Below are positions 5,617-36,981 of a stretch of 49,215 nt of DNA, one piece after another. Made by a program: the position numbers and the translations under genes. Position 1 is the first letter of the stretch; each line of letters opens with the position of its first letter. The notes beneath the pieces are model-generated. The model saw only the letters and a list, made by a program, of their open reading frames with translations. It was not told where the DNA came from and did not search any database. This stretch comes from Candidatus Woesebacteria bacterium. GTDB taxonomy: Bacteria > Patescibacteriota > Microgenomatia > UBA8517. The stretch spans positions 1-49,215 of the forward strand of contig CAWASW010000003.1 in assembly GCA_963784785.1 (NCBI GenBank), in the 5' to 3' direction.

Positions 5617-5695
5617 TTTGGCACATACAAAATATTGTGTCAAGAGGAAAGTTTAACGTATAATTATATTATGATAAGAAATGAGCCCTCTGTAA

Positions 5696-6213: not shown

Positions 6214-6252
6214 ATTTAAGGCTAAACAAGTGACCGTTTATGCAACGGTATC
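6214..6252 (-). mobile_element. Truncated copy (first 39 bp) of the 195-bp MITE, cut by IS200 copy A
   Basis: The reverse complement reads GATACCGTTGCATAAACGGTCACTTGTTTAGCCTTAAAT, identical to the first 39 bp of 7660..7854 and 21069..21263. Confidence 0.75.
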
Positions 6253-6256
6253 TATG

Positions 6257-6340
6257 CGGAGGAGGCGAGATTCGAACTCGCGAGGCTGTTAAGCCGCAGA
6301 CTTTCCAAGTCTGTGGAATGAACCACTATCCGACTCCTCC
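6257..6340 (-). tRNA. tRNA-Ser (anticodon GGA)
   Basis: Hand fold: acceptor GGAGGAG/CTCCTCC, anticodon stem CAGAC/GTCTG with loop TTGGAAA, long variable arm, T arm GCGAG-TTCGAAT-CTCGC, discriminator G. CCA is not encoded. Confidence 0.85.
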
Positions 6341-7659: not shown

Positions 7660-7854
7660 GATACCGTTGCATAAACGGTCACTTGTTTAGCCTTAAATGA
7701 TTTGTTGTTTTTCGTTAAAATAATAACACTTTCGTCCGATTACTCGGACAATGCTGAAATTGGTTGTAGAAGCGTTTACTTAGTGAAACTACCTTTTTAG
7801 GCCGAAAGTATAGTAAAATCAGTGTGTTTTAGGAGACCGAAATGTAACGGTCTC
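7660..7854 (+). mobile_element. 195-bp MITE-like element with imperfect terminal inverted repeats and a 9-bp target duplication
   Basis: Identical by eye to 21069..21263. Ends are GATACCGTTGCAT and ATGTAACGGTCTC (11 of 13 complementary). Flanked by AAATTGCGG (7651..7659) and AAATTGCGC (7855..7863). Confidence 0.75.
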
Positions 7855-7857
7855 AAA

Positions 7858-8082
7858 TTGCGCCAATTTACGAATCGGCGCGAACTTTCTTTCAGACCGC
7901 AGTCTGAAATACAAACATAGTTTAACATGATCGTTTGCATTCTCCAAGGGAGGGGTCAAAGGGGAAGGAATTGGAGGATGCTCGACTCGGGTTTGTTCGC
8001 TCAGCCACTGCGTGGCTTCGCTTAACGCATATGATCGGAAGCTTCAGCTCACCCCACTCCGTGGGGTTCGCTAACCCAATTG
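7858..8082 (+). repeat. 225-bp repeat, copy 1 (inverted partner at 18212..18436)
   Basis: My hand alignment of the reverse complement of 18212..18436 finds identity everywhere except 8027..8048 and position 8059. Confidence 0.9.
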
Positions 8083-8496
8083 AAAGGAAAAGGGGGTTTA
8101 TAGTCAGTTCGCCTGCGGGCTCCTGACGGGTAGTTAACGGTGTCAGGAAGATGGTCCATCGACTCCGTTAACTGGCCGTATTTACGGCCTTTTGTCCGTG
8201 TTACCGTCCAGCGGACGGTTAACGGCTAGCCGTTGGGACAAAATTGGACATTAAACATGGACATTTCAGTCGCAATTTGCCCTGTCGGGCAACCACCCAA
8301 GTGCTAGTACACAGAGTGCTTACGCACAGCACTTGGTTAGGAAGCTACAGGCACAACAGGCATTGCTTCCTGAAATATCCCTTGTCAGGGATCCTGCCCA
8401 GCACAAAACACCCCAAAGCTACAGGGGTGTTGGCCTTCGGCCATGTGCACGGGCAGGAACAGGAACAATATAAGTCTAGTAAAAACCTAGGTTTTT
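7858..8496. ncRNA. Candidate large structured non-coding RNA (class unknown, strand not established)
   Basis: About 55% G+C in counted lines, versus about 35% in a background line. No protein-like ORF. More than 15 perfect local or nested helices, listed in the corresponding finding. Confidence 0.45.
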
Positions 8497-8660
8497 GAAA
8501 GGTATTAAAGTAAGAATTACAGCTTGTTCACAGAAAGTTGTTCTAGTTAAAACATTTCATGTTAAATGCCAACTAAACCATTTCGGTTGTATTTATTTTT
8601 ACTAGATTTGTATATGCAATAACGATTTTTTCATTCTTGTTCGTATTACATATACCAAAA

Positions 8661-8858
8661 TTATATAGGATTTCTACCTGCACGATACATAACAATAAGT
8701 CTTGTGCCCTTACCATCATGCCTTCCACTTGGTATTACAATTTCATTTTCTAAGACACCACCGCTATAATCTAGTTTCTTATCAGAATCAGTTTCAACTT
8801 CATCTGTGTTTGCATTCAGATTTTCTTTTTCGTCATCTGTTATTTTATTTTCAGTCAT
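8661..8858 (-). CDS. Small acidic hypothetical protein
   Basis: 65-aa ORF only. No recognisable motif. Confidence 0.3.
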   Translation of the reverse strand: MTENKITDDEKENLNANTDEVETDSDKKLDYSGGVLENEIVIPSGRHDGKGTRLIVMYRAGRNPI

Positions 8859-8883
8859 AATTTATCACCTCTTTTCAAACCAA

Positions 8884-8907
8884 CAAAAAACCTCCCTTCG
8901 GAGGTTT
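8884..8907 (-). terminator. Rho-independent terminator (minus strand)
   Basis: AACCTCC-CTTC-GGAGGTT hairpin followed on the minus strand by T6. Confidence 0.6.
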
Positions 8908-9107
8908 GAAATGCATAGCATCTAAACCCCCGTTAGGAAGTAAATAAAAATGCAAATGTATTTACTTCGTTAGAAGCAAACTTGTTTATTGATTTCATCT
9001 GCCAAGTATAGCAGACTTTTTTTCTTCGTCAAATGTATGTATATTGTGTTCACAGTTCACGCGGATGATTATTTTAACTTAGAAGTTCAACAACAACATA
9101 TTCTGAT

Positions 9108-9887
9108 CTATTTGATTTCAATTAAATACTTCGCAAGAATTGGAGCAACACTAAGATTAGCCTTTTTATTGGGATGTGAGTCCCAAGGTAGAAGTCTTGT
9201 ATATTCTTTCTTTAAAAATCCATTTTCATCAGCGAGTAAACTGTAAAAATCAAAGACATAAATATTTTTAGAATCTCCTGTAAATTCTTTTGAATTTAAC
9301 CAATCTACTAATTTCTTTGCCCTTATAGCTTGGTCTGTGTTTGTAGTTTCTTTTCTTGCAGGTGGAGGTGTAAAAACTATAAATTGTTTGTTTGGATATT
9401 TTTTGAGATTATCTCTAATTACTTTATAGTATCTAATATCTTCTTCAAGTTGTTCATTTGTGGCAATTCTTGTTGTAGGATAACAGTTTTTAAACGCTAT
9501 GATATCGTAATTTAGTATTGATTTAAGTGTCGAATCATTTGGATCTCTTGAAAATATATCTGCATATTCTTTTGGACTATTATTACTCAAAACTATATTG
9601 TAATCAGCCCCTGTTATTTCCCCATTATTATCACTTAAGCCTTTGTGGTGTGTGAAGTTTGATAATAATTTAGGAAAGTATTTATACAGGTTATAACTAT
9701 GATCCCAGAATTCAATTGTTGAATTTAACTTTTTAATTTCATTTCTTAAATCACCCTCTTTAATTAAGTTGCCACCAGTTGAATGGTGGATAAATAAAAT
9801 CTTTTCTGTCGCTTCTTTTGCATTAATTGTTAATGGAGTAAACATAAATATTAAAAATATGATTAATAACAATCTTATTTTCAGCAT
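9108..9887 (-). CDS. Secreted hypothetical protein
   Basis: 259 aa. N-terminal signal-like MLKIRLLLIIFLIFMFTPLTINA. No motif I can name. Confidence 0.55.
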   Translation of the reverse strand: MLKIRLLLIIFLIFMFTPLTINAKEATEKILFIHHSTGGNLIKEGDLRNEIKKLNSTIEFWDHSYNLYKYFPKLLSNFTHHKGLSDNNGEITGADYNIVLSNNSPKEYADIFSRDPNDSTLKSILNYDIIAFKNCYPTTRIATNEQLEEDIRYYKVIRDNLKKYPNKQFIVFTPPPARKETTNTDQAIRAKKLVDWLNSKEFTGDSKNIYVFDFYSLLADENGFLKKEYTRLLPWDSHPNKKANLSVAPILAKYLIEIK

Positions 9888-10015
9888 ACATTAATCATAT
9901 CAAAAAAAGTAAGCTAAAATATTTCTGGCCTAATTTGTGTTAAACTTCTCCCAAAGTTAGAGGCTACTTGCAGCTTTGACATTTAAAAAATTCTATTCAA
10001 GGAAAGGAGACGGTT

Positions 10016-10363
10016 ATGTTCAGACGTTGGCTCTCAAAGTATTTTAGTTACTTTCTGGCAGGAGCAATCGTGATGGTTGCTGTCTATGCCATGATGTTTG
10101 AATTGACAAAATATCCATTTAATTGGAAATTTAGTTATTCAATCATTACATTGGGAATACTGAATGCAGGGCTTGCTTTTTCAGTATTTAAAAATAATTG
10201 GATGTTAGTTAAAGGAACTGCAGAACTTGCAACATGGTTGCCATGTATTGCAGTTGTATCATCCATTGTTTCATTATTGGTCAATGCAGATCCAAAACTC
10301 ACAATATTCCTTGTGATTGCAACTGGATTCGCCGAACTATTTTTGGTTTCACCTGATAAGTAA
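10016..10363 (+). CDS. Small integral membrane protein
   Basis: 115 aa with about four hydrophobic spans. GGAG precedes the ATG. Confidence 0.5.
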   Translation: MFRRWLSKYFSYFLAGAIVMVAVYAMMFELTKYPFNWKFSYSIITLGILNAGLAFSVFKNNWMLVKGTAELATWLPCIAVVSSIVSLLVNADPKLTIFLVIATGFAELFLVSPDK

Positions 10364-10398
10364 TAATAATATTTCAAATCTTACAAAAAGGAGATCCA

Positions 10399-10626
10399 AT
10401 GATAAACGATTTTAAAAACTTTCCCTCAAAGGAAAGATGGGTGATGATACGGTTGCTTTCATATCTCATCATCCTTGGAACGATTACTATTATTGTTCCT
10501 GAAGCAATTGAGTGGACGGGAACTGTTCAACTTATTTTCGCAACAACAGAGTTGATCTATGTTCTTCGTAAACCGCGTCAAAAGCCGGTAGACATGCCAC
10601 TTGAACTTGAAGACTACGATAAATGA
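10399..10626 (+). CDS. Small integral membrane protein
   Basis: 75 aa with two hydrophobic spans. AGGAG precedes the ATG. Followed by a strong terminator. Confidence 0.5.
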   Translation: MINDFKNFPSKERWVMIRLLSYLIILGTITIIVPEAIEWTGTVQLIFATTELIYVLRKPRQKPVDMPLELEDYDK

Positions 10627-10634
10627 CCACTAAA

Positions 10635-10666
10635 AACCCAATCAAAACACCGATTGGGTTTTTTTA
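10635..10666 (+). terminator. Rho-independent terminator
   Basis: AACCCAATC-N8-GATTGGGTT followed by a T-run. Confidence 0.75.
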
Positions 10667-10685
10667 ATGTCTAAAAATTTTATTT

Positions 10686-10901
10686 TTATCCCTCTCTACT
10701 TCTTAAAAAACAATGAAATTCACAACCATTACAATTGCCCACAACTTTTACTTTTTTAATATCATTCTCTTTAACTCCCAACAAGCCAGCTGCAACCTTA
10801 GTTTCTCCAAGTGATTTAATATTGTCTTTTAAACAAATTGTTTTATCACATGTTTCCTCACGAGTTACATTGTCTACTGTTATTTTTAATCCTAAAGGCA
10901 T
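10686..10901 (-). CDS. Small Cys-containing hypothetical protein
   Basis: 71 aa with a C-terminal CNGCEFHC. No family assigned. Confidence 0.35.
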   Translation of the reverse strand: MPLGLKITVDNVTREETCDKTICLKDNIKSLGETKVAAGLLGVKENDIKKVKVVGNCNGCEFHCFLRSREG

Positions 10902-11203
10902 GAAAGGTATTGTAAGCTAAAGATGATGAAATACAAATGAAGAAGTAAATTGAAGTTCTTGCAAGTTCCGATAGGTATAATTTTTTAGATTATATTGATC
11001 CTATCGGAACTGCATTTTACATACTTATCTAATATATTCAATAAACCAATATGACGACTGTCATATTATTTTCAGATCACAAAGATCTAGGTTTAGAAAA
11101 CATTGATCAGATAAGCATCTGTCTTGCAAAAATAATTTAAAATAATAGTAACAAATAATTACAGATCAAGGTGAGATTAAATCCCTCCTCAATCTTCTTC
11201 GAA

Positions 11204-11530
11204 CTACGAAAGTTCTTTATCTTCACCTTTTACAGTGTCGAGATTATTTCGCCTGATTGTTTCTGATTTTCTGATCGTAACGTCATACATAAGAATTCCT
11301 GCAAGCAAGAACTCTACAAATGCAGCCGCCACGATTTGCCAAAATTCATTCCAGATAATCTGCCCAAACGCTTGAATAAGCGATAAAAGAGCAACTTCTG
11401 CAACGAAGATTGTGAAGAATAACAGGAACGCATGTTCCTTTGTTTCACTCTTGCTTTTAATTGTTGATTTGATCAACCCACCAAGTGCAAGCGAAAACAC
11501 AATTCCAATCATCCAATATATAATGTTCAC
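11204..11530 (-). CDS. Integral membrane protein
   Basis: 108 aa with three hydrophobic spans. GGAG upstream. Confidence 0.5.
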   Translation of the reverse strand: MNIIYWMIGIVFSLALGGLIKSTIKSKSETKEHAFLLFFTIFVAEVALLSLIQAFGQIIWNEFWQIVAAAFVEFLLAGILMYDVTIRKSETIRRNNLDTVKGEDKELS

Positions 11531-11546
11531 TTCGGACTCCTTTTAA

Positions 11547-11924
11547 CTAGGTATTCCAGTCGTACTTGATCATGAACGAAAAAACCAATATCGGGATAAA
11601 TCCCAATATCATGAACGATGACATCGCTGCGGAGGCAATTACCCACCAAGCCATGCCAAAGCCCAATGTTAGAAATGTTGCAAACGCCCAGAGAAGGAAA
11701 AACCTTCTTTTCCCGAACGATGCTTGGTCCATGTAAACCGCGAGAATTCCAGATAACGCCACTAAGAACCCAGAGGGTAACAGTTTTACAACATCTGCAA
11801 AACCAAAATCCTCAGGCAATCTTTCAGTGGGCGACACCAAAGTTCCAACGATGATTGCATAGACAACAATTGCTAACAGTAACACTGTGAAGAACTTACC
11901 GAACCGATTCAGTTTGTGTTCCAT
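11547..11924 (-). CDS. Integral membrane protein
   Basis: 125 aa with four hydrophobic spans, adjacent to the previous gene. Confidence 0.5.
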   Translation of the reverse strand: MEHKLNRFGKFFTVLLLAIVVYAIIVGTLVSPTERLPEDFGFADVVKLLPSGFLVALSGILAVYMDQASFGKRRFFLLWAFATFLTLGFGMAWWVIASAAMSSFMILGFIPILVFSFMIKYDWNT

Positions 11925-12206
11925 TTTCTTCTCCTTATATAATGTTTGAACTTACCAAGTCCAGACATAGTTTAAATATGCCCAGAATTGGCAAGTCCAA
12001 TTCATATTGAGAAATTATTTTGCAAGACTGTTAAAGAGCAAATTTAGCTTTAAATAACACTGCAATAGTGTGTTTAAAGTACTAAAAGATTAGCACAGAA
12101 AAGGTCAAAAGTCAATATTATGGGGTACTTCAAAAGTACCACATAAGGTCCCCTTATAGGGTATTGCTTCTCAATTCCCCTAGTACTAATATTTAAATAT
12201 GCTGCT

Positions 12207-12494
12207 ATGAAAAATGAAGAAAATAGTTCTCCTGTAATTAACAAAGACACTTCAGAAGCAGTTGTTTCAGTCAGAAGTGTAACTGCTAAAAAACAAATTA
12301 GAGATTCAGAAGGTAGGTTTATTAAAGAAGGTGAAGTAAGCGTTCCTGCAATTTCCTTTTCAACTTCACAGAATCAAAATGTAAAAACTGGTGATGTACC
12401 TGATTTAGTTAGTTTAAAAGTTACTAACCCTCTTGTTTATATCAAAGCATGGTGGAAAAAGATAATGGCTAATGAAGGACTAGAGTATGAATAG
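12207..12494 (+). CDS. Hypothetical protein
   Basis: 95-aa ORF that ends exactly at the hairpin of the IS200-like element. Confidence 0.4.
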   Translation: MKNEENSSPVINKDTSEAVVSVRSVTAKKQIRDSEGRFIKEGEVSVPAISFSTSQNQNVKTGDVPDLVSLKVTNPLVYIKAWWKKIMANEGLEYE

Positions 12495-12495
12495 A

Positions 12496-13013
12496 CCCAC
12501 GACCTGACGGTCGGGGTTTCATTAGAACACAAACAGAGTTTGCCCTGCATCTTTTTTACCTTGGTTTTCTATGTACCTCTCTATCACACTTTTGTTTATT
12601 CCCACAGTTGATACAAAGTAGCCTTCAGACCATATTGATTCAGTCCCCCAGTACACATTTTTAAGGAATGGGAATTTTTGTTTTAAGAACCTAGCTGTAT
12701 TTTGTTTAATAATTCCTACAACTTTACCAACTGCAATAGTTGGCGGAATGGAAACAAGAAGGTGTAAATGATCTTTGTCATGATTTACTTCCTTAATATT
12801 TATCATTGGGTAATGTTCCTTAATTTCCGCCAACTTAATATCAAAGTATGCAAAAATTCCTTCATTAAAAATGTTCTTTCTGTACTTAGTGGCTATGACT
12901 ATGTGGTAATCACATTGGTACACGCAGTGTGATATGTAAATAAAGTCCATACATATATTTTACAACCAAAAAAGCTGCAGGGGTAACTCCATCCCACGAC
13001 CTTACGGTCGGGG
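12496..13013 (-). mobile_element. Second, unrelated IS200-type element
   Basis: A tnpA gene flanked by near-identical hairpins in direct orientation: CCCACGACCTGACGGTCGGGG (12496..12516) and CCCACGACCTTACGGTCGGGG (12993..13013). Confidence 0.7.
12522..12950 (-). CDS. tnpA: IS200/IS605-family Y1 transposase TnpA (divergent from the 144-aa copies)
   Basis: 142 aa. HLHLLVSIP (HUH) and SEGYFVSTVG (Tyr region). Confidence 0.85.
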   Translation of the reverse strand: MDFIYISHCVYQCDYHIVIATKYRKNIFNEGIFAYFDIKLAEIKEHYPMINIKEVNHDKDHLHLLVSIPPTIAVGKVVGIIKQNTARFLKQKFPFLKNVYWGTESIWSEGYFVSTVGINKSVIERYIENQGKKDAGQTLFVF

Positions 13014-13019
13014 ATTTAA

Positions 13020-13538
13020 GTGAGGAAGGTTAAATTCAAAGCCAAACCAATTACTGCAATTGCCATATCAGTTGCTTTATTCTCACTTGTTTTTGGATTA
13101 GGTGGAGTTGTATTCCCTACACTTTTCCCATTTTTAAATATTAATAATACAAATGAGGTTGTAGCTACAGATTCTCCAACACCAAGTTCTGATTGGAGAG
13201 AAACTGCATTAAAAGGAACCCTGAAGAAAACAACAAGTGTACCAATTAAATTCTTTCTTTTAACTTCCTCAGATGAAGCAGTTACATTACAAGCTCCTGA
13301 TTATATTACACTAGACAAACTAATTGGGAAAAGAATACTAGCAACTGGCAACTACTCACAAAAACAAAAACTTTTAATTATCCAAGATGTACAAGACCTA
13401 GAAGTTTTATCAACCACTCCCATTCCAATACCAACATCAACCCCAACAATTGCACCAACACAGACACCAACGCCTATTCCTACACCTATGCCTACAGTAG
13501 AACCAACCACTGTTTCAACAGAAACTCCAATAATTTAA
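13020..13538 (+). CDS. Membrane-anchored protein with a Thr/Pro-rich C-terminus (GTG start)
   Basis: 172 aa. N-terminal TM segment ITAIAISVALFSLVFGLGGVVF and a C-terminal TPIPIPTSTPTIAPTQTPTPIPTP low-complexity region. Confidence 0.5.
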   Translation: MRKVKFKAKPITAIAISVALFSLVFGLGGVVFPTLFPFLNINNTNEVVATDSPTPSSDWRETALKGTLKKTTSVPIKFFLLTSSDEAVTLQAPDYITLDKLIGKRILATGNYSQKQKLLIIQDVQDLEVLSTTPIPIPTSTPTIAPTQTPTPIPTPMPTVEPTTVSTETPII

Positions 13539-13558
13539 TTTGTAGTATAATAAACAAT

Positions 13559-14195
13559 ATGGACAGCGAAGACAGGCTCGATCAAAACATGAATGAGTTT
13601 TACGACGCAGATACCCATGTTTCTACGTGGGCTGATGTTTACTTCAATAATAAAGACGGTATATCAGAGATTGATCGAGGTGATATAAGAACCTTTTTCG
13701 AATATTGTGGTGCTACAGATAAGATTGAGCCAGAATTAAGAGAAAAGTTTTCTGCAAAGCATTATGGAAACAAATCCCGATCAGAAGCTATGGAAGCTGT
13801 ATGGGGGGGACAAATATAAAGAATATAGAGAATTTTGTAATAAATATATTGCTGAATATGAAGAACGAACAGGCAAGGAATTACCAAAAGTTGAATTTAA
13901 GCATGATGATAAACCTTCAACTTTTTCGAAAACAGAAGGCATGAGAGGATTCTTTGCAGATTTAACTGCATATTCTTTTGCTGACACAAACGAATACAAA
14001 TTTGAAACTTTAGATTTAGTTACAAGAGCCAGATTAAATAATGGTAAGGCAAGAGAAGATGGAACAAAGACAGAAAGATTTAGAGTTACCATCGAGGGTT
14101 ACAATAAAAACAAATCTTTTGAACCTGCAGGTTTTCCGCCTGATTTTCCTGAAAAAGCCTTAAGTTTTGTTCGTACTTGGAGTAGTGTTAAATAA
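13559..14195 (+). pseudogene. Hypothetical gene split by a +/-1 frameshift at a G7 tract
   Basis: ORFs 13559..13819 and 13764..14195 overlap in different frames across GGGGGGG (13803..13809). Removing one G fuses ...EAMEAVWGG to DKYKEYREF.... Confidence 0.45.
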
Positions 14196-14241
14196 TATTG
14201 ACCCCTTAGTTTAAGCTAACTCATTTATATATCCTATAACA

Positions 14242-14270
14242 TTGACAAATGGCTATTTTTATGCTATTCT
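14242..14270 (+). promoter_or_regulatory. Sigma70-like promoter
   Basis: TTGACA-17 nt-TATTCT, about 200 nt upstream of the 14476 gene. Confidence 0.4.
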
Positions 14271-14475
14271 GACTTCATAAATTTGGAGAAATTTCAGGTT
14301 CAATTTGCACCTAACTATTTCTCCTCTTTTTATTTATCTTGTACTTTAACAACTTCAAGATTTGAATTTTGAGATGAAGCTAACATTAAGAGTTTGTTAC
14401 AAACTAACAAATTTTTACAGTTAGTTTTGTCGAAATTTTCATATTCAATTAAAAATCAAACAAGGAGATGTCAGA

Positions 14476-15648
14476 ATGAGTAAGAGAAAGTTTGTAGTGC
14501 TTGCGTGGGACTGTGCAAATTGTGGAACGGAAAATCCCGGACCTAAGAAAACTTGCACACAATGTGGAAGCCCGCAACCAGAGGGAGTTAAATTTCATAC
14601 TCCGACTGGCGGATTCAAGGAAGTCACCGATTCTAAACAAATCGAAGAGGCCGAACGTGGTCCTGATGTTCATTGTCCGTTTTGTGGCACACGAAATGCC
14701 GATGGATCAGTGAAATGCACTCAATGTGGAGGAGAACTCAAGGGTGGCAAACGCAGAAAAACAGGTGATAGACCGGATACTGATCAGGATGAAGGAATTG
14801 ATAACGGCGAATACACAAAGAGCGAGGATCCAGAAACTGGATTGGTCTCTGATGTGTTGCCTTCTGTATCTTCTTACTCACCTGCTCGCTATTCATTACC
14901 TACACTTGATCGAACCAACGTTGTTGAAACTCTGCAAACTGCTATTAACAGCAGAGTGGTTCAGGTTGGAGGCTTGATTGCCATCGTAGCGCTTTGTTCG
15001 TGGCTCATCTGGATGCTTTTTTTCAATACGACCGTTGTACCTGTTACCTTAAATAATTTTCATTGGGAATTAAACATCCCTGTTGAAGAATATCTTTGGG
15101 TAGATGAATCAGGTTGGTCAGTTCCTGCGGGTGGCATCGAAACGAGTAGTGAAGAACGCACCACAGGTTATGAACAAAAGCAATCATGTGAACTTGTTTC
15201 AAAACGTGAACAGGTTGGCACGGAAGCATGCAATGGTCGTATGAAAGATCGTGGCAATGGATATGCCGAATGGGTCGAAGATCAATGCCCCAAGTACGAA
15301 GATAGACAAGTAAACGAATGTAAAATGGTTGACGATTACAGTCGCCCAATAAAACAAACGTATTACTACTATCGCATACAGAAATGGATTGTAACTCGCA
15401 ATGTTCCCGCGTCCGGCGATGATAATAATCCTGTTTGGCCTCCTGTTCTACTTTCACAAGGTGAACGCGAAGGTTTTCGCAGTCAGTTTTTCACCGTGTA
15501 TTACACTGATGAAAAAGGCGAAGGTCATTCACTCACAAGTATGGATTGGGATTGGTTTACCAGTCTATATTCTGGACAAGTTTGTCATGCTGACCGCAAT
15601 GGTTTCGGTGGGTTAAACCTCGGAATTGATTGCAGTCCTCAGCAATAA
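14476..15648 (+). CDS. Double zinc-ribbon membrane protein
   Basis: CANCGTEN...CTQCG and CPFCGTRN...CTQCG motifs, then the TM segment VGGLIAIVALCSWLIWMLFF and a Cys-containing ectodomain. GGAG upstream. Confidence 0.65.
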   Translation: MSKRKFVVLAWDCANCGTENPGPKKTCTQCGSPQPEGVKFHTPTGGFKEVTDSKQIEEAERGPDVHCPFCGTRNADGSVKCTQCGGELKGGKRRKTGDRPDTDQDEGIDNGEYTKSEDPETGLVSDVLPSVSSYSPARYSLPTLDRTNVVETLQTAINSRVVQVGGLIAIVALCSWLIWMLFFNTTVVPVTLNNFHWELNIPVEEYLWVDESGWSVPAGGIETSSEERTTGYEQKQSCELVSKREQVGTEACNGRMKDRGNGYAEWVEDQCPKYEDRQVNECKMVDDYSRPIKQTYYYYRIQKWIVTRNVPASGDDNNPVWPPVLLSQGEREGFRSQFFTVYYTDEKGEGHSLTSMDWDWFTSLYSGQVCHADRNGFGGLNLGIDCSPQQ

Positions 15649-15778
15649 ACCAAAAATAATTGAATATCTTGAAGCCTAGCGTGCAAACCACTCACATCTC
15701 CCAAGATGAAGAAGTTTGCACGTCCTTATATAGCTGTGTAGCTATACTGATGAGCTCAAAAAAGCGAAAAGGAAAAAT

Positions 15779-16768
15779 TTAAAAAGGCGGTTCTATCTCT
15801 TCTGACGATTCCATTTCTTCTTCGAGCATTTTGCTCATGAGTGATGAATATTCGTAACTATCAATAATTTTAGTTTTATTTTCAAGTAGTTTTTCATAGA
15901 ATTCTTTTACGTCTGAATCAGTTAAAATTGAATAAATCTGTGAGTTATTAATTGCAATTGATACTAATTCTCGTATCTGTTCATCAGTATAGCTAACATA
16001 TTTAGATAGCTTCGAGACAATTGCGTGCGATGACACAAAATTTGGACTGTTTCTTAATTTTAAAATTAAATTATTTTTGTCTTCCTCGACTTTAAGTTGT
16101 ATGTTCTTGTGATGTTCGCCAAAGAAATCTGATAATTTTATATAGAAAAATATTTTAGATTTTTTCTTCGTTTCCCATTCTTCAATTAAAAATGAATTCA
16201 GTAACGATCCATCTAGTGGAGATTTGAAATCTTTATCGTCACTAATAAAAAACAGGTCTTGATTATCTTCTAATTCGGATAACATCGTAACCCAATTTAC
16301 TGAGTCGCCATATGAACCTTGTTTGCCTGGTGGATTACCTAATTCATATCTAGTTTTTGCATCGTTATAATATTTTTCTGAATCAATTATTTGTGAAATT
16401 CCGAACAACTCATTTATTATTTCATCGGCTTTTAAAGTTCGTTTGTTTATATCGTTTTGTAGTTTTTCATCAAGGCTGTTTTTTAGTATTCTGAATTCTT
16501 TTAATACCTCTTTAATTTTTACAAACTCATCGTAAGATTTACAAATTTGAGGCAGGTTAATATCTATTTTTGAATCCTTAAATTTACCATACGCATCAGC
16601 GACTTTGTTATCTCTATTTCTTTTGACCTCGTCTATTATTTGTGAGGTAACTACAAGATTTATTTCGCCTTTTTTGATTAGAACAATCAATTTTTTAAGT
16701 TCATCAAGATCATCATTTGAGAAGTGGTAAAAATCAAGAAAGATATTGGCATCTACAAATAAATTCAT
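15779..16768 (-). CDS. PIN-like domain protein (DUF4935-like)
   Basis: The N-terminal MNLFVDANIFLDFY resembles the first acidic motif of PIN-like domains. The rest was not recognised. Confidence 0.45.
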   Translation of the reverse strand: MNLFVDANIFLDFYHFSNDDLDELKKLIVLIKKGEINLVVTSQIIDEVKRNRDNKVADAYGKFKDSKIDINLPQICKSYDEFVKIKEVLKEFRILKNSLDEKLQNDINKRTLKADEIINELFGISQIIDSEKYYNDAKTRYELGNPPGKQGSYGDSVNWVTMLSELEDNQDLFFISDDKDFKSPLDGSLLNSFLIEEWETKKKSKIFFYIKLSDFFGEHHKNIQLKVEEDKNNLILKLRNSPNFVSSHAIVSKLSKYVSYTDEQIRELVSIAINNSQIYSILTDSDVKEFYEKLLENKTKIIDSYEYSSLMSKMLEEEMESSEEIEPPF

Positions 16769-16830
16769 ATACGGCTATTTTACCACCAAGTTATTGAAAT
16801 TGTTTTTTGAAAGGTGTAAAAATAATTAAG

Positions 16831-16962
16831 GTGACAAAAGTTCAAATAAAAGAGCCAAAGGTAGTTAAACTCAATGATTTTTGGAGTAACTTCATTCTTT
16901 GGTTTGCTGCATTTGGTCTTGGAATAACAGTCAATATAATTATTAACTTTTTCAGAAGATGA
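16831..16962 (+). CDS. Possible small TM protein (GTG start) translationally coupled to the nuclease gene
   Basis: Hand translation gives VTKVQIKEPKVVKLNDFWSNFILWFAAFGLGITVNIIINFFRR, with its TGA overlapping the ATG of 16959 (ATGA). Not in the ATG-based ORF track. Confidence 0.25.
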   Translation: MTKVQIKEPKVVKLNDFWSNFILWFAAFGLGITVNIIINFFRR

Positions 16963-17480
16963 GTAACAACAAATTTGTTTTAGTTCCAATAGAGCTTCTT
17001 AAAAATTTAAAAGAACTTGCGAAAGATACAGAATATGAAGATGATGTAAGAAAAGTACTTGATTCAAGAGAAGCTATTGAGAATCATGATATAACTAAAT
17101 TACCAAAAACCGCAGTTGTTAAAAAAGTCATCGATGGAGACACTGTGGAGTTATTTAACGGCCTTGTACTTAGATATGTGGGAATGACTGCACCTGAAAC
17201 TGGAGAACCTTTTGAAAAAGAATCTACAGAGGCAAATCGAGACTTAGTTGAAGGCAAAGAAATAAAATTAAAATATGATAACTACACCTCAGACAAATTT
17301 GGCAGAATTCTTGCATACCCAATACTTCAAGATGGAACAAATGTATCAATTGAGTTAGTTAAAAAAGGTATGGCTGAATTAGTAATTTACCAAAAGCGGA
17401 AGCCATTTATTCATCAAGTTCAACTTTTAGAAGCACAAGAACAAGCAAATAAAAATAAGATAGGTATTTGGAAAAAATAA
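16959..17480 (+). CDS. Thermonuclease (staphylococcal nuclease/SNase-like)
   Basis: VIDGDTVEL...VLRYVGMTAPE...DKFGRILAY...GMAELVIY match the SNase fold motifs. Confidence 0.75.
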   Translation: MSNNKFVLVPIELLKNLKELAKDTEYEDDVRKVLDSREAIENHDITKLPKTAVVKKVIDGDTVELFNGLVLRYVGMTAPETGEPFEKESTEANRDLVEGKEIKLKYDNYTSDKFGRILAYPILQDGTNVSIELVKKGMAELVIYQKRKPFIHQVQLLEAQEQANKNKIGIWKK

Positions 17481-17505
17481 AAACTGATATAATCTTCACA
17501 AACAA

Positions 17506-18114
17506 ATGAAAAAACTAATCTTTGGAACCACAAATGAAGCAAAGATAAAACAAATTAGGGGTGCTTTGGCTCCTGCTGGTATTTATGTGAATGGAGTTCT
17601 TGATAAAAGTATGTTGCCAGAAGTTATTGAAGACGGAAAAACAGCAAATGAAAATGCAAGGAAAAAAGCAATTGCATATGCAAAAGTGTTAAGGAAGACA
17701 GTCTTTTCAATGGATGTTGCAGTTTATATAGATGGTTTATCTGAAGAATTACAACCAGCACTAAATGTTAGAAGAATCCCAAACAGTGTTGGACGCCCAT
17801 CAGATGAAGATTTAATTAAATATTATTCTAAAATAATTGAGTCGCTTGGTGGTACGGCAACTGGAACAAGTGAATATGGAGTCTGTATTGCCACTCCAAA
17901 TGGAGAATTTAGAGAGTCAACAATAATGATTCCAAGAAAATTTGTTGTTCCTGCTAGTCCAAATCGTCAAGAGGGATACCCGCTATCATCATTAGTTGTT
18001 GATTCAGACTCAAACACATTTATGGCAGACATGAATCAAGACGAACAAGATTTATATTGGCAAAAACTTGTTGGAGATAAATTGATAAATTTTGTTAAGT
18101 CTGTGGAGTTTTAA
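17506..18114 (+). CDS. Non-canonical purine NTP pyrophosphatase-like protein (HAM1/RdgB family)
   Basis: N-terminal FGTTNEAKIKQI motif and a size of about 200 aa. Confidence 0.5.
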   Translation: MKKLIFGTTNEAKIKQIRGALAPAGIYVNGVLDKSMLPEVIEDGKTANENARKKAIAYAKVLRKTVFSMDVAVYIDGLSEELQPALNVRRIPNSVGRPSDEDLIKYYSKIIESLGGTATGTSEYGVCIATPNGEFRESTIMIPRKFVVPASPNRQEGYPLSSLVVDSDSNTFMADMNQDEQDLYWQKLVGDKLINFVKSVEF

Positions 18115-18211
18115 GAACAACAGCTTCTGTTGTATAAAATAAGTATCTTTAAGATTAAATAAGTATTTTATGTTATTAGTAAGCGTGGGCTGGGTATTAG
18201 GACATCGAACA

Positions 18212-18436
18212 CAATTGGGTTAGCGAACCCCACGAAGTGGGGTGAGCGGAGAGTCCGACCATATGGAGTTAAGCGAAGCCACGCAGTGGCTGAGCGAACA
18301 AACCCGAGTCGAGCATCCTCCAATTCCTTCCCCTTTGACCCCTCCCTTGGAGAATGCAAACGATCATGTTAAACTATGTTTGTATTTCAGACTGCGGTCT
18401 GAAAGAAAGTTCGCGCCGATTCGTAAATTGGCGCAA
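18212..18436 (-). repeat. 225-bp repeat, copy 2 (inverted relative to 7858..8082)
   Basis: See copy 1. All differences lie in 18246..18267 and at 18235. Confidence 0.9.
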
Positions 18437-18494
18437 AATCCCGAGCTGGCGGGTCGGAGCGAAGCGACGACCAAGCCATTATCCCGTCCCCTCG
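18432..18494 (+). repeat. 63-bp inverted repeat, left arm, flanking the serine recombinase gene
   Basis: CGCAAAATCCCGAGCTGGCGGGTCGGAGCGAAGCGACGACCAAGCCATTATCCCGTCCCCTCG. It is the exact reverse complement of 20035..20097. Confidence 0.9.
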
Positions 18495-18585
18495 AACAAG
18501 CACAAACAACACAATAAGGAAGCAAAATATTGCGATATTTTGACCACTTGATTTGGTTTATTTACGGGCGTATAAATGATAGTAG

Positions 18586-20199
18586 ATGACTACAATTGTA
18601 AATAACCCAAATCAACAGAAATACTTCATATATGCAAGGAAGTCTACAGATGTAGAAGAAAAGCAAGTGCAATCTATTGAAGGTCAACTTGATGAGTTGC
18701 ATTTGCTTGCCAAGAGAGAAAATTTAGAAGTTATTGAAGAATTCATTGAAAAACAATCAGCTAAAATTCCTGGGAGACCAGTTTTCAATAGCATGATTAA
18801 TAGAATTGAGAAAGGTCAGACAAATGGAATTCTCTCTTGGCACCCAGACAGACTTGCGAGGAACTCAGTTGATGGAGGTAAAATAATTTACCTCATTGAT
18901 ACAGGCAAGATATCTGCCCTCAAATTTAACACCTTTTGGTTTGAACCCACTCCTCAGGGTAAATTTATGTTGTCAATTTCCTTTGGGCAGTCAAAATATT
19001 ATGTGGATTCGTTAAGTGAAAATACTCGTCGTGGGTTACACCAAAAAGCTAGAAATGGATATTTCCCAGGAGTTGCACCTTTGGGGTATATTAACGATAC
19101 TCGTAACAGAACTATCGTTGTTAATAGAAAAATTGCTCCAATTATTACTAAAGCATTTGAAATGTATGCAGAGGGAAATATCCAAATAAAAGAAGTTGCT
19201 AGCTTTTTGGAACAACAAAAGGTGTTAAGGAAAAATGGTAAAAGAATTAGAGAAGATGTAGTAACTATGATTTTAAAAAAGTTATTTTACACAGGACTCT
19301 TCACCTATGCAGGTGAAGTATATGAGGGCAGACATGATCCAATAATCTCAAAGAAACTTTTTGACAAAGTCCAAGAGGTTTTGAATTTTAGAAACGCACC
19401 ATGGAAATATGCCAATATAGAAAGAATTCAAAAACCTTTTCTTGGACTTTTAAGGTGTGGTGAGTGTGGCATGATGATTACTGCTGATTTTCAAGTTAGA
19501 CATTATGTAAATGGTAGTTGTGGCTACTTTAATTATTATAGATGTAGTAAAAAGAATAAAAGTATAAAGTGCCAACAACCCCATATCCGAGATATAGATT
19601 TAGAGCCACAACTCACCACACTACTCAAAAAGTATACTTTGAGACAAGATTGGGCTAATCAGATGCTTTTGAAATTAAAACAAGAAGAATCTGATGTCGC
19701 CAAATCCTCCCTTGAAGTTAATAATTTGAAAAGACAACAAGTTGAAGCTATTGATGTTAAGTTAAAATTGTTGTTAGATAGTTACTTAGATCAAATAATT
19801 GATAAGGATGTTTTCCAAGAAACAAAACTTCAACTTGTATCTCAAAAGAAAACTTTTGAAGAACAAATTATTAACAATAAAAAACATCAAGGGAGTTGGA
19901 TCGAACCCATGAAACAATGGGTTCTTGAGGCTCAAACAGTACAACAAGTTGCAGAATCTGCGGATCTGCAACTTAAAAAGGTCCTCGCCGTTAAAATCTT
20001 CGGCTCGAACCTCTTTCTAGAAGACAAAAAACTCCGAGGGGACGGGATAATGGCTTGGTCGTCGCTTCGCTCCGACCCGCCAGCTCGGGATTTTGCGGAG
20101 GATGCAGGATTTGAACCTGCGAAGGGATTGCTCCCTCGAGTTTTCGAAACTCGTGCAATAGGCCGCTATGCGAATCCTCCAAATATACGTAGTACATGA
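18586..20199 (+). CDS. Large serine recombinase (resolvase domain, recombinase domain, zinc ribbon, coiled coil); native C-terminus uncertain
   Basis: YFIYARKSTDVEEKQVQSIEGQ (catalytic Ser region), HPDRLARN, CGECGMMITADF...YYRCSKKNKSIKC zinc ribbon, then a coiled-coil region. There is no stop codon before the right repeat, so the last ~55 codons are repeat plus antisense tRNA sequence. Confidence 0.85.
   Translation: MTTIVNNPNQQKYFIYARKSTDVEEKQVQSIEGQLDELHLLAKRENLEVIEEFIEKQSAKIPGRPVFNSMINRIEKGQTNGILSWHPDRLARNSVDGGKIIYLIDTGKISALKFNTFWFEPTPQGKFMLSISFGQSKYYVDSLSENTRRGLHQKARNGYFPGVAPLGYINDTRNRTIVVNRKIAPIITKAFEMYAEGNIQIKEVASFLEQQKVLRKNGKRIREDVVTMILKKLFYTGLFTYAGEVYEGRHDPIISKKLFDKVQEVLNFRNAPWKYANIERIQKPFLGLLRCGECGMMITADFQVRHYVNGSCGYFNYYRCSKKNKSIKCQQPHIRDIDLEPQLTTLLKKYTLRQDWANQMLLKLKQEESDVAKSSLEVNNLKRQQVEAIDVKLKLLLDSYLDQIIDKDVFQETKLQLVSQKKTFEEQIINNKKHQGSWIEPMKQWVLEAQTVQQVAESADLQLKKVLAVKIFGSNLFLEDKKLRGDGIMAWSSLRSDPPARDFAEDAGFEPAKGLLPRVFETRAIGRYANPPNIRST
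20035..20097 (-). repeat. 63-bp inverted repeat, right arm
   Basis: Exact reverse complement of 18432..18494. Its outer 2 nt overlap the 3' end of tRNA-Ser(CGA). Confidence 0.9.
20096..20180 (-). tRNA. tRNA-Ser (anticodon CGA)
   Basis: Acceptor GGAGGAT/ATCCTCC, anticodon stem CGAGT/ACTCG with loop TTCGAAA, long variable arm, T arm GCAGG-TTCAAAT-CCTGC, discriminator G. Confidence 0.85.
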
Positions 20200-20976: not shown

Positions 20977-21063
20977 GGTGGAGTCGCATAGCTGGCCCAT
21001 TGCGGGGGATTGCTAATCCCCTGAGTAGCAATACTCGCGTGAGTTCGAATCTCACCTCCACCG
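20977..21063 (+). tRNA. tRNA-Ser (anticodon GCT)
   Basis: Acceptor GGTGGAG/CTCCACC, anticodon stem GGGGA/TCCCC with loop TTGCTAA, long variable arm, T arm GTGAG-TTCGAAT-CTCAC. Confidence 0.85.
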
Positions 21064-21068
21064 CAAAA

Positions 21069-21263
21069 GATACCGTTGCATAAACGGTCACTTGTTTAGC
21101 CTTAAATGATTTGTTGTTTTTCGTTAAAATAATAACACTTTCGTCCGATTACTCGGACAATGCTGAAATTGGTTGTAGAAGCGTTTACTTAGTGAAACTA
21201 CCTTTTTAGGCCGAAAGTATAGTAAAATCAGTGTGTTTTAGGAGACCGAAATGTAACGGTCTC
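21069..21263 (+). mobile_element. 195-bp MITE-like element inserted 5 nt after tRNA-Ser(GCT)
   Basis: Identical to 7660..7854. Flanked by a perfect 9-bp direct repeat ACCGCAAAA (21060..21068 and 21264..21272). Confidence 0.75.
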
Positions 21264-21271
21264 ACCGCAAA

Positions 21272-22116: not shown

Positions 22117-22200
22117 GGAGGGTTGTCCGAGTGGTTTATGGAGCAAGTCTTGAAAACTTGTGGTCGCAAGGCCTCAGAGGTTCGAATCCTCTACCCTCCG
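22117..22200 (+). tRNA. tRNA-Ser (anticodon TGA)
   Basis: Acceptor GGAGGGT/ACCCTCC, anticodon stem CAAGT/ACTTG with loop CTTGAAA, long variable arm, T arm AGAGG-TTCGAAT-CCTCT. Confidence 0.85.
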
Positions 22201-22201
22201 C

Positions 22202-22817: not shown

Positions 22818-22821
22818 TTTG

Positions 22822-23205
22822 CGGAGACGGTGGGAATCGAACCCACATCCGAGAAAATTTTAATAAAACTTCTACAAGCTTATTCAATTTATTTAATTTT
22901 CCTTTAATTTATCCAATTGACAGGAATTTAAAGGTAAGATCAGGTTATTTTCCGTTCAATATCTACTGATCACTAAATATTGACGTAATCTCGAATTGGT
23001 TTACACCCAGTCAGTTCGATCGAGAATCAAACCTCAGGACGCCGTTAAGCTTCGTAAGCGAATGCGTATTGCATTCTATTAGCGAAAGGATTAACAGAAG
23101 CTAAACTTTCGTTTTGCTTTTAGTTTTTGATATCTTTTAACAAGTGTGTATCAAACTTGGCTTGCAGTTTTGTCAAAGAGCCCCTCGTCGAAACCGGTCA
23201 TCTCC
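22822..23205 (-). ncRNA. ssrA: tmRNA (SsrA)
   Basis: The minus strand starts GGAGATGACCGGTTTCGACGAGGGGC and ends GGGTTCGATTCCCACCGTCTCCGC (tRNA-like domain). It lies directly downstream of smpB. Candidate tag ORF at 23083..23045. Confidence 0.85.
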
Positions 23206-35331: not shown

Positions 35332-35349
35332 AGAAGCTACTCAAAACTA

Positions 35350-36932: not shown

Positions 36933-36981
36933 ATTTAATTCTTCTTCTGCTCTCCTATCGATCTTTATTAATTTGTTTATC

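Follow-up and report, generated by a model that had tools for sequence, protein, structure and literature searches.

The DNA analyzed here (the window) is a stretch of 49,215 nt, contig CAWASW010000003.1 of a Candidatus Woesebacteria bacterium. It carries a gene for a large serine recombinase (LSR) set between two inverted arms of 63 nt each, which are 100% complementary and lie 1540 nt apart; a 91-nt leader and the recombinase ORF are all that they enclose (Table 1). That a 63-nt match should arise by chance in a window of 35% G+C is effectively impossible. The right arm includes the discriminator (G73, position 20096) and the last acceptor base (C72, position 20097) of a tRNA-Ser(CGA) gene. 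The left arm overlaps by 5 nt (CGCAA) the end of a 225-bp repeat (18212-18436), which is the reverse complement of 7858-8082 with 96.5% identity, the last 169 nt being 100% identical. The perfect repeats, their exclusive content and both overlaps had been reported in a preliminary description of this DNA, and all are confirmed here. The possibility raised there that the repeat is an assembly artefact is ruled out by the recurrence of the layout in over 50 independent assemblies, for which different assemblers had been used; a function for the 63-bp repeat is supported.

Table 1 Features of the LSR cassette and of the 12-kb island in the window.
Feature	Position	Strand	Remarks
attR core TTGCG	7858..7862	.	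Direct repeat of the core at 20093-20097
S2, outer copy of the 225-bp element end (P-type side of attR)	7858..8082	-	Adjoins non-element DNA
14 tail codons and stop, second copy (PIYESARTFFQTAV, stop)	7863..7907	+	Would join the LSR ORF in an excised circle
SR-long, extension of S2	8083..8480	-	G+C-rich, hairpin-rich, ORF-free
Island cargo	8481..18211	.	IS200-like transposase (12522-12950) and other ORFs
S1, inner copy of the element end	18212..18431	+	With the left arm, internal inverted attP-like site
Last 14 LSR codons plus stop (PIYESARTFFQTAV, stop)	18387..18431	-	If joined to the ORF across the arm, in frame with it
Left arm	18432..18494	+	P' arm of the internal attP; core CGCAA (18432-18436) inverted relative to both outer cores
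LSR leader / promoter region	18495..18585	+	Conserved among close relatives
LSR ORF, present form	18586..20199	+	537 aa; last 33 aa are antisense-tRNA read-through
Right arm	20035..20097	-	P' arm of attL; also codes for LSR residues ...RGDGIMAWSSLRSDPPARDFA
attL core TTGCG	20093..20097	.	20096-20097 are tRNA G73 and C72
tRNA-Ser(CGA), B side of attL	20095/20096..20180	-	Arm provides discriminator and trailer

The product of the ORF has Resolvase, Recombinase and Zn_ribbon_recom domains (PF00239, PF07508 and PF13408, all above the cut-off in a profile search), which bears out its identification as a large serine recombinase, and residues R18, K19 and S20 are invariant across 52 LSR sequences. 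The best NCBIfam match of the LSR is CcrB, at 119 bits where 900 are required, so the LSR is not a Ccr protein; the scores obtained over the Ccr equivalogs (CcrA, CcrB or CcrC) are 119, 75 and 63 bits, for which the cut-offs stand at 900, 700 and 900. Its sequence identity to phage LSRs does not exceed 27%, and the integrase of A118 is the only solved LSR structure that matches past the N-terminal catalytic domain (E ~8e-4). Only distant or truncated relatives were found in IMG/VR viral contigs, which rules out a typical prophage integrase. The ORF has no stop codon within the cassette and reads ...DFAEDAGFEPAKG... through the antisense strand of tRNA-Ser(CGA) (537 aa); if the left flank is attached as its reverse complement, the same frame reads ...DFAPIYESARTFFQTAV and stops after 518 aa, both as had been predicted. 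An 18-nt inverted repeat (18548-18565 and 18598-18615) brackets the start codon. The promoter proposed in the leader (TTGATT, 17-nt spacer, TATAAA) fails a consensus scan; what stands of that assignment is the conservation of the leader in close relatives.

At the tip of the tRNA-Ser gene sits a 12-kb mobile island, and the 63-bp inverted repeat marks its integrase end. The two outer TTGCG cores are direct repeats and the inner CGCAA is inverted, and the ends of the island are hybrid sites that share only this short, directly repeated core: attL consists of tRNA-Ser(CGA) joined to the right arm and attR of S2 joined to ordinary flanking DNA, where, judged by the rest of the family, the crossover dinucleotide is likely CG (7861-7862). 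Besides the transposase, the cargo comprises genes for a zinc-ribbon protein, a PIN_12 protein, an SNase-like nuclease and a Ham1-like protein as well as ORFs of unknown function, and is partly syntenic with the cargo of a related locus, L082. SR-long is homologous to the region 3' of LSR1 in locus L084. Neither S, as we call the ~225-bp end sequence, nor SR-long has a family in Rfam at gathering scores or at E <1. A guide or bridge RNA encoded by S that would choose the tRNA was rejected, as the longest matches between S and its own tRNA do not exceed those between S and the tRNAs of other loci. A 196-bp repeat that sits at the attR core, beside S2, is not a mini-element mobilized by the LSR: it has hairpin terminal repeats and a direct target duplication of ~8 bp that differs between copies, and behaves like an ordinary MITE.

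In L082, the genes for DUF5673, tRNA-Arg, tRNA-Ser(CGA), ORF147 and tRNA-Ser(GGA) are contiguous, and the island of that genome is located at tRNA-Ser(GCT). Subtraction of 7858-20097 from the window restores the L082 gene order, apart from one further HD-domain gene and the MITE. The two DNAs come from different strains, syntenic at ~80% nucleotide identity with intergenic DNA that cannot be aligned. A large chromosomal inversion between the tRNA-Ser genes was considered for the difference between window and L082 and discarded, because an island at oppositely oriented tRNA-Ser genes fits better. The island model predicts an empty site in which tRNA-Ser(CGA) is joined to TTTGAAAACGATAG, instead of to GCGCCAATTTACG as previously suggested; the empty attB would read ...CAGGTTCAAATCCTGCATCCTCCGCAATTTGAAAACGATAG, with or without the MITE. 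The search for the 63-bp sequence elsewhere, which had been recommended, was productive in that six public metagenome contigs, all from Hainich groundwater, carry the arm core of the window, but all six are in the read-through arrangement (state T, see below) and provide no circle, empty site or flipped form for the species of the window.

The same layout was found at ~50 independent loci of Patescibacteria, at no fewer than 12 tRNA types, and the family occupies at least 594 places in species-representative genomes; it is widespread in Patescibacteria and apparently has not been described before. Near-perfect inverted repeats surround the LSR gene at 51 of 80 loci in GTDB species genomes (54-219 bp, median 131), the arm copies being mostly 97-100% identical within loci, and most loci without such repeats are interrupted by contig ends. 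The outer end of the 3' arm coincides with tRNA position 72 in 29 out of 41 cases. A second, inverted S copy, laid out like S2 of the window, occurs at 18 or more related loci; it is 91-100% identical to the first and lies 0.9-7 kb upstream. The cargo varies and measures 0.9-10 kb across the family. Identity of the S copies ends 3-8 nt into the arm, and the DNA beyond the outer copy resembles a native tRNA trailer, terminator hairpin and T-run included. By sequence comparison, the crossover of the family appears to map to the last acceptor base and the discriminator (N72-N73). In L116, a complete element, only CT (N72-N73) is common to the three junctions, the outer pair of cores being direct and the inner one inverted. 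The upstream arm is absent in a few members (L002, L030), thus the internal attP is not obligatory. Two further loci (L117 and L084) show the arm-LSR-arm' segment with S on either side, compatible with a circle or with tandem elements. The variable cargo of the family, which includes restriction enzymes, a DGR-like reverse transcriptase, a helicase-nuclease, GuaA, Alr and ProRS, is typical of islands. No gene besides the LSR is conserved near the locus across the 81 loci compared, hence there is no obvious directionality factor, though a small or unrelated one may escape such a comparison.

The cassette occurs in two arrangements. In state T the LSR gene reads through into the tRNA; in state S the tail is kept and the promoter side adjoins the tRNA. 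At least 84 of 120 homologs end in antisense tRNA and ~8 in the S-encoded tail; most loci are in state T, and the opposite arrangement accounts for ~10% of the relatives (L083, L116 and L052 among them). At ~40 state-T loci, the ORF, once joined to the reverse complement of S, would run on in frame and end in (L/I)Y-x-x-(A/I/V)RT(Y/H/F)F-x-x-N-x-stop. The conserved residues are spelled by different codons (Arg: CGA 28, AGA 14, CGC 2; Thr: ACC 26, ACT 12, ACA 5; Phe: TTT 36, TTC 8), and comparison of the sequences indicates that the tail encoded by S is under protein-level selection. Coding also explains the conservation of the left-flank motif GGTTCGAGC, since its changes are synonymous Arg codons; as a mimic of the T-loop it was rejected, because about one third of the loci have GTTCTA or GTTCTG, which occur in no T-loop. 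Within clusters of at least 90% identity, S tails and up to six different tRNA tails part at the same residue. The cassettes of L116 (state S) and L118 (state T) are 97% identical, and in general both states were seen among relatives with cassettes 90-97% identical, at different tRNAs and in different samples. The proposal that the C-terminal tail depends on the arrangement is upheld; both arrangements are present in relatives, and the alternative tail is conserved at the level of the protein. No locus has a disrupted LSR gene in state T; the protein with the junk tail may thus be fully functional and the tail swap of minor importance.

We propose that 7858-20097 is an integrated cargo island mobilized by the LSR, with a free circle that bears two attP sites and a swap of the LSR tail upon integration, a reading that we hold to be probable. 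It builds on the anatomy of the sites, the direct and inverted cores, the conservation across the family, the occurrence of both states among nearly identical cassettes and the selection on the tail at the protein level. When free, the element would form a circle, with the LSR gene between two attP copies in inverted orientation; each copy would consist of S joined to the arm, the 63-bp sequence that also codes for the C-terminal region of the LSR. If the attP 3' of the LSR gene recombined at C72-G73 with the 3' terminus of tRNA-Ser(CGA), the products would be attL (tRNA joined to arm, 20035-20097 plus the tRNA) and attR (S2 joined to the flank at 7858), and the second attP (S1 joined to arm, 18212-18494) would be left untouched just upstream of the LSR gene. 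This untouched attP would account for the position of the gene between perfect inverted arms. Because attP lies inside the ORF, integration would part the LSR from its last 14-15 codons, which are carried on the reverse strand of S, and the state-T protein would end in antisense-tRNA junk. The tail could be restored by excision (attL x attR, joining arm' to S2'), by inversion of the cassette between S1-arm and tRNA-arm, or by integration through the other attP, leading to state S. Such a swap might tie the activity or the directionality of the integrase to its state of integration. The internal attP may serve to restore the intact gene, as together with the long perfect arms it would permit occasional restoration, through homologous recombination or the action of the LSR itself. 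The reactions of canonical large serine integrases are limited to attP with attB and, given a directionality factor, attL with attR, hence an LSR-catalyzed inversion between attP and attL would be unorthodox; since the presumed crossover dinucleotide CG is a palindrome, the polarity of the core would not by itself bar other reactions in the window.

An unlikely alternative is a resident inversion switch, in which the arm-LSR-arm segment is flipped in place by its own LSR in the manner of Hin, between the tRNA end and S1, mainly to toggle the tail or transcription into the neighbors, irrespective of any mobility of the DNA around it. The recombinase gene inside perfect inverted repeats, the conserved in-frame alternative tail and the two inverted cores, which is the geometry of inversion, agree with such a switch, as do the two orientations among close relatives (L083, L116 and L052 versus most loci, and the 97% identical pair L116 and L118); integration via either attP copy, however, fits the same data with no flip in place. 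Moreover, the unit is mobile: S2 adjoins unrelated flanks at its outer junction, the outer cores are direct, the cargo varies, and tRNAs differ inside the 90% clusters. No single population was found with both orientations, the lineage of the window being in state T only, and we know of no LSR that recombines attP with attL. The LSR (518 or 537 aa) and the arms (63-219 bp) also set the system apart from small invertases of the Hin/Gin type. Comparison of cargo orientation, which might have distinguished inversion in place from use of the other attP, failed as L116 and L118, the most closely related pair of the two states, differ in cargo and in S. Self-inversion of the cassette is possible.

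It is very improbable that the 1.67-kb cassette is an autonomous compact transposon, which would have the 63-bp inverted repeats as its termini and would have entered between the 225-bp repeat and the tRNA. Its perfect terminal repeats enclose the recombinase gene alone, near-identical cassettes (L116 and L118) have differing S and cargo, the cassette is found with S/tRNA, tRNA/S and S/S flanks, and polarity would permit excision at the palindromic CG core of the window. The cores at the cassette ends are nevertheless inverted (CGCAA and TTGCG), as opposed to the direct dinucleotide at both ends that characterizes IS607 and TnpX elements, and mostly asymmetric in the family (CA, CT), a configuration that conservative insertion of a circle cannot yield. 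Since the cores at 7858 and 20093 are direct, conservative insertion by a serine recombinase explains the 12.2-kb unit and not the 1.67-kb one. In-frame tail codons are invariably present in the left flank, which makes it a part of the system and not target DNA; no cassette without S, no empty S-tRNA junction and no target duplication were seen. The earlier suggestion of a self-contained 1.67-kb inserted element is thus not sustained, its left flank being the conserved S with a second inverted copy upstream. Scarcely credible is the notion that S1-arm is kept mainly as an autoregulatory binding site of the LSR, akin to res of the Tn3 resolvase, with no recombination there. Its location 90-150 nt upstream of the start codon at nearly all loci, the conserved leader and the inverted repeat around the start codon would suit an operator, but the intact in-frame tail codons and stop of S1 under protein-level selection, the state-S loci, and an arm identity far longer than a binding site (median 131 bp, mostly 97-100%) would be left unexplained.

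The island reading shares features with several known systems. Like phiC31, Bxb1, A118/LI, TP901-1 and SprA, the LSR combines Resolvase, Recombinase and zinc ribbon and has Ser20 in a YxRxST motif, and as with phage and ICE LSRs, conservative attP x attB recombination at a very short core leaves no target duplication and places the integrase at one end. In contrast to these, the attB of the family is the 3' tip (72-73) of many tRNA genes, attP is within the integrase ORF, whose last 15 codons end up at the opposite end of the element, upstream of the gene lies a second inverted attP, no directionality-factor gene is conserved, and the elements are islands of 3-12 kb devoid of phage or conjugation genes. 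The SCCmec cassettes (CcrA/B/C) are likewise small, carry cargo but no transfer genes, are placed by LSRs at the 3' terminus of a conserved housekeeping gene and are prone to tandem accretion (in our family, L084), but here a single recombinase operates and the target is a tRNA and not rlmH; to our knowledge, neither an inverted attP duplication nor a split ORF has been described for SCC. As in Hin, Gin, Cin and Pin, the recombinase gene is inside inverted sites and both orientations exist in nature, yet these invertases are small (~190 aa, with a C-terminal helix-turn-helix domain), act on 26-bp sites and have an enhancer bound by Fis, whereas here a 518-aa LSR with arms of 63-219 bp occupies a segment that ends a mobile island. 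In the integration-dependent immunity of the mycobacteriophages BPs and Brujita, attP lies inside an ORF and integration alters the C-terminus of the protein and hence its activity or stability. The window attP is similarly placed within an ORF whose encoded C-terminus changes upon integration; in those phages, however, the enzyme is a tyrosine integrase and the cut gene a repressor, while the serine integrase of the window cuts its own gene, with a spare inverted copy of the removed end adjoining. Tn4451/Tn5397 (TnpX, TndX) and IS607 resemble the island in having a serine recombinase as sole mobility protein, an expected circle and multiple targets, and differ from the cassette in that a dinucleotide is directly repeated at their two termini and the end repeats are short and imperfect; in IS607 the transposase is in addition small, and long inverted ends are lacking. 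Full-text literature searching found no case of an attP inside the frame of its own integrase accompanied by a spare inverted attP, a combination that suggests control of directionality without an accessory protein.

More speculatively, the LSR might sense its own state of recombination, the tail replacing a directionality factor, the spare attP acting as a reset and targeting extending to all tRNAs at 72-73; we consider this doubtful, if attractive. The tail would then decide whether the LSR integrates, excises or stays inactive, the free or flipped form having the conserved tail and insertion at a tRNA giving the junk tail, and the LSR would be a pan-tRNA-targeting serine integrase that recognizes the universal tRNA 3' end. 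Large serine integrases are wanted as tools for genome engineering, and an LSR of the window type would target the conserved tRNA 3' end at a defined dinucleotide, with an activity that may be set by a tail of 15 residues. The genomes of Patescibacteria (CPR) are tiny, and few mobile elements have been described from them. With defense genes, a DGR-like cassette and even genes of housekeeping type (GuaA, Alr, ProRS) as cargo, the family may be a major route of gene gain there.

The ends of many contigs lie inside an arm or 120-140 nt beyond one. These breaks were considered as a sign of population heterogeneity or flipping and are explained instead by repeats (S copies of 120-300 bp, arms of 114-147 bp) relative to an assembly k of 127-141; CPR assemblies often break at LSR genes because the S and arm repeats reach or exceed the assembly k-mer.

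The large serine recombinase (LSR) of the window, a 537-residue protein with three LSR domains, is encoded by an ORF that has no stop codon within its own cassette and reads 33 codons into an antisense tRNA. The 63-nt arms bounding the cassette are exact reverse complements and enclose the LSR gene and its 91-nt leader alone. The right arm covers the end of tRNA-Ser(CGA), starting at the last acceptor base (C72, position 20097) and taking in the discriminator (G73, position 20096), and the left arm shares five nucleotides (CGCAA) with a 225-bp sequence that recurs in inverted orientation at the far end of the 12.2-kb island. The observations of the preliminary description were borne out, and the alternative C-terminus that it gave for a flipped cassette was reproduced exactly. 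The leader is conserved in relatives, and an 18-nt inverted repeat (94% complementary) on either side of the start codon may serve as an operator or, in the RNA, form a hairpin hiding that codon.

Coordinates of the island, its cassette and other features of the window
Feature	Position	Strand or orientation	Core
Island	7858-20097
225-bp sequence, outer copy (S2)	7858-8082	inverted copy
attR core	7858-7862	direct	TTGCG
Hairpin-packed region	7858-8480 (especially 8083-8480)
225-bp sequence, inner copy	18212-18436
Left arm	18432-18494
Internal attP core	18432-18436	inverted	CGCAA
18-nt inverted repeat	18548-18565 / 18598-18615
LSR ORF	18586-20199
Right arm	20035-20097
attL core	20093-20097	direct	TTGCG
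tRNA-Ser(CGA)	20095/6-20180	minus
tRNA-Ser isoacceptor genes	6256-6340, 20095-20180, 20977-21064, 22117-22201
tmRNA	22819-23205
MITE, identical copies	7660-7855, 21069-21264
MITE, end fragment	6214-6253
IS200-like element, identical copies	5695-6219, 35349-35873, 36415-36943
IS200-like element, diverged copy	12522-12950
HTH_3 and Gp49-like gene pair	35854-36427

Metagenomes hold thousands of LSR homologues, the best 120 of which share 50-89% identity with the window LSR, and among GTDB species, each represented by one genome, a scan gave at least 594 relatives, the best 80 of them almost throughout from Patescibacteria/CPR MAGs. Near-perfect inverted repeats (54-219 bp, median 131) flank the LSR gene in 51 of these 80 loci, and most of the loci lacking them are truncated by contig ends. 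The 3' arm meets a convergent tRNA, for which almost any type serves (Gly, Leu, Val, Glu, Thr, Phe, Lys, Tyr, Arg, Cys, Asn, Ile, Ser or Gln), and position 72 of the tRNA is its starting point in 29 of 41 cases. Seven homologues of about 900 amino acids (P0004, P0035, P0049, P0063, P0088, P0101 and P0107) look like two fused recombinases or cassette-to-cassette read-through.

The C-termini of the homologues are conserved as far as ...KIFGSNLxLxNKxVRGxGxxxWSALRAxPTxR, past which they diverge into translated antisense tRNA T-arms (GIEPA, GFEPR, RIELS etc.). Outside the 5' arm, every locus carries the motif AAAATAGGTTCGAGC-N6-GTAAA-N4 preceded by 150-300 nt of G+C-rich hairpins; this element-end sequence, S, is represented in the window by the 225-bp repeat. 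The opposite strand of S, joined to the ORF across the arm, always keeps the frame and supplies in about 40 loci the tail (L/I)Y-x-x-(A/I/V)RT(Y/H/F)F-x-x-N-x-stop. Among 44 distinct sequences, the codons used for Arg (CGA 28, AGA 14, CGC 2), Thr (ACC 26, ACT 12, ACA 5), Phe (TTT 36, TTC 8) and Tyr (TAC 35, TAT 2) of this tail bear the signature of protein-level selection. Since S continues the frame with such a codon signature, the genuine 3' terminus of the LSR gene lies inverted, upstream of the gene. In about eight of the 120 homologues the S tail is the actual end of the protein, and their contigs show the mirror arrangement, hereafter state S, as opposed to state T, in which the ORF reads into antisense tRNA. 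Thus L083 reads tRNA-Val(+) / arm / LSR / arm' / reverse complement of S; in L052 and L069 the S tail lies directly 3' of the LSR, and in L003, L016 and L025 a tRNA abuts the promoter-side arm. In L069 (6512-6672) arm' and the S tail are separated by some 75 nt that resemble an antisense tRNA 3' half and may be a scar from earlier recombination.

At least 18 loci with enough upstream sequence have a second, inverted copy of S (91-100% identity) 0.9-7 kb upstream, which matches the inner copy until 3-8 nt into the arm and is followed by an ordinary-looking tRNA trailer with terminator hairpin and T-run. The general map on the LSR strand, X being flanking DNA, is therefore X' / S2' - cargo - S1 / arm - LSR - arm' / tRNA'. 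A complete state-S element, L116, has the order tRNA-Gly / arm - LSR - arm' / S' - cargo - S / X, and CT (tRNA positions 72-73) are the sole nucleotides common to its three junctions, the two outer cores being direct and the inner one inverted. This pattern is the signature of conservative circle integration by a serine integrase, with tRNA/arm as attL, S/X as attR and an extra, intact and inverted attP (S/arm) inside the element. The window fits this core pattern exactly, and the five-nucleotide overlap of its 225-bp and 63-bp repeats is the recombination core. The crossover is confined to tRNA positions 72-73, identity starting at N72 far above chance frequency.

Comparison with a related genome (L082, about 80% nucleotide identity) bears on the insertion itself. 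There DUF5673, tRNA-Arg, tRNA-Ser(CGA), ORF147 and tRNA-Ser(GGA) are contiguous, and the window without the island has the same gene order, except for an HD-domain gene and a MITE. L082 carries a like island, sharing cargo genes, at tRNA-Ser(GCT), and a third relative (L081) has its cassette at tRNA-Ser(TGA), which argues that the tRNA-Ser cluster is an insertion hotspot. About 3 kb of the window holds three of its four tRNA-Ser genes, its one tRNA-Arg and the tmRNA. Beside the L082 island site, a 345-aa ORF (11545-12585) with HTH and LAGLIDADG-like domains overlaps the LSR ORF end on the opposite strand; it is missing from the window. Members of one protein cluster (90% identity or more) can end in the S tail or in any of up to six different antisense-tRNA sequences, and the residue of divergence is the same throughout. 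The cassettes of L116 (state S, tRNA-Gly GCC) and L118 (state T, tRNA-Gly CCC) are 97% identical, and their S bodies and cargo differ. Mobility of these elements is recent. In L084 two cassettes stand in series (S/arm1-LSR1-arm1'/S' - ORF369 - S/arm2-LSR2-arm2'/tRNA-Ala); the S end (attR) of one element seems to have served as integration site for the other, a layout suggesting that S can replace a tRNA end as target and that elements accrete in tandem.

The cargo is diverse. In the window it includes the IS200-like transposase, a PIN_12 protein, an SNase-like nuclease and a Ham1-like protein; a GNAT protein occurs elsewhere in the family. Across the islands of L006 (2753-7460), of L027, L068 and L076, and of L055, L067 and L077, the cargo comprises a DGR-like reverse transcriptase with Fib_succ_major and lectin-type genes, the restriction endonucleases HaeII and NgoFVII, a Z1-domain endonuclease and a 1483-aa SF1 helicase-nuclease. 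In some islands the cargo is a lone gene of housekeeping type: GMP synthase, alanine racemase, or ProRS accompanied by an amino-acid kinase.

The mechanism that we propose builds on the observed site anatomy, core polarity, split ORF with its selected tail and both states. The free form would be a circle whose LSR gene is bracketed by a pair of inverted attP copies (S1+arm and arm'+S2', each 288 bp in the window circle). Integration by the downstream attP would give state T, with loss of the tail; integration by the upstream attP would give state S, with the tail kept, and inversion of the cassette in place would have an equivalent outcome to the latter. The spare attP would let an intact LSR gene re-form. 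We favour the view that the tail sets the activity or directionality of the integrase according to its integration state, because state T is about ten times as frequent as state S and no conserved directionality factor, nor any other conserved gene besides the LSR, is present around it among the loci compared. The arms far exceed a serine-integrase half-site in length; within a locus they are mostly 97-100% identical, between loci they diverge, a pattern indicative of gene conversion or homologous recombination between the two arms, so that host recombination may be what flips the cassette. We know of no recombination of attP with attL by canonical LSRs. The mechanism is testable and potentially useful.

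A purely resident, Hin-like switch would account for the inverted cores and the two states, but is at odds with the outer junction, the cargo and the hopping between tRNAs, and we consider it unlikely. Much less probable is an autonomous 1.67-kb transposon consisting of the cassette alone, which the preliminary description had entertained: modular reassortment in L116 and L118 and the palindromic CG core of the window speak for it, yet the cores are inverted and mostly asymmetric and the left flank has a coding role. That part of the earlier reading fell, whereas its orientation-dependent tail stood, both states being found. Still harder to credit is an operator-only role for S1/arm, which would leave the preserved tail codons without explanation. 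Likenesses are found in known systems: functionally, SCC-type cassette chromosomes likewise are small islands with cargo, placed at a conserved gene's 3' end, and phage serine-integrase systems share the short core. An attP cutting an ORF recalls the integration-dependent immunity of mycobacteriophages, and the geometry of the circle that of the yeast 2-micron plasmid. Domain content makes the enzyme an LSR, yet one distant from characterised LSRs (CcrB as best NCBIfam match, with 119 bits where the cut-off is 900; A118 integrase in the PDB, E about 8e-4; at most 27% identity to phage integrases), and its type is rare in IMG/VR. Full-text searches of one library gave no description of this LSR family or of an inverted attP with a split integrase, an absence that does not prove novelty.

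The ORF-free, G+C-rich, hairpin-packed 620 nt at the outer end of the island (MFE -251 kcal/mol, z about -8 against mononucleotide shuffles) have no Rfam match and a homologue in L084, downstream of LSR1; they may fold as a large structured RNA or serve the element end as a protein-binding platform. The three identical 525-bp IS200-like copies encode a 144-aa Y1 transposase (PF01797); two of them flank a HigB/HigA-type gene pair, and the diverged fourth lies within the island cargo. The 196-bp MITE is present in two identical copies and as a 40-nt end fragment after tRNA-Ser(GGA). Its 24-nt terminal inverted repeats (GATACCGTTGCATAAACGGTCAC...) form hairpins, its flanks are CCGCAAAA at tRNA-Ser(GCT) and AATTGCG precisely on the island attR core, and it seems to prefer CGCAA at tRNA-Ser 3' ends, the LSR's own site sequence.
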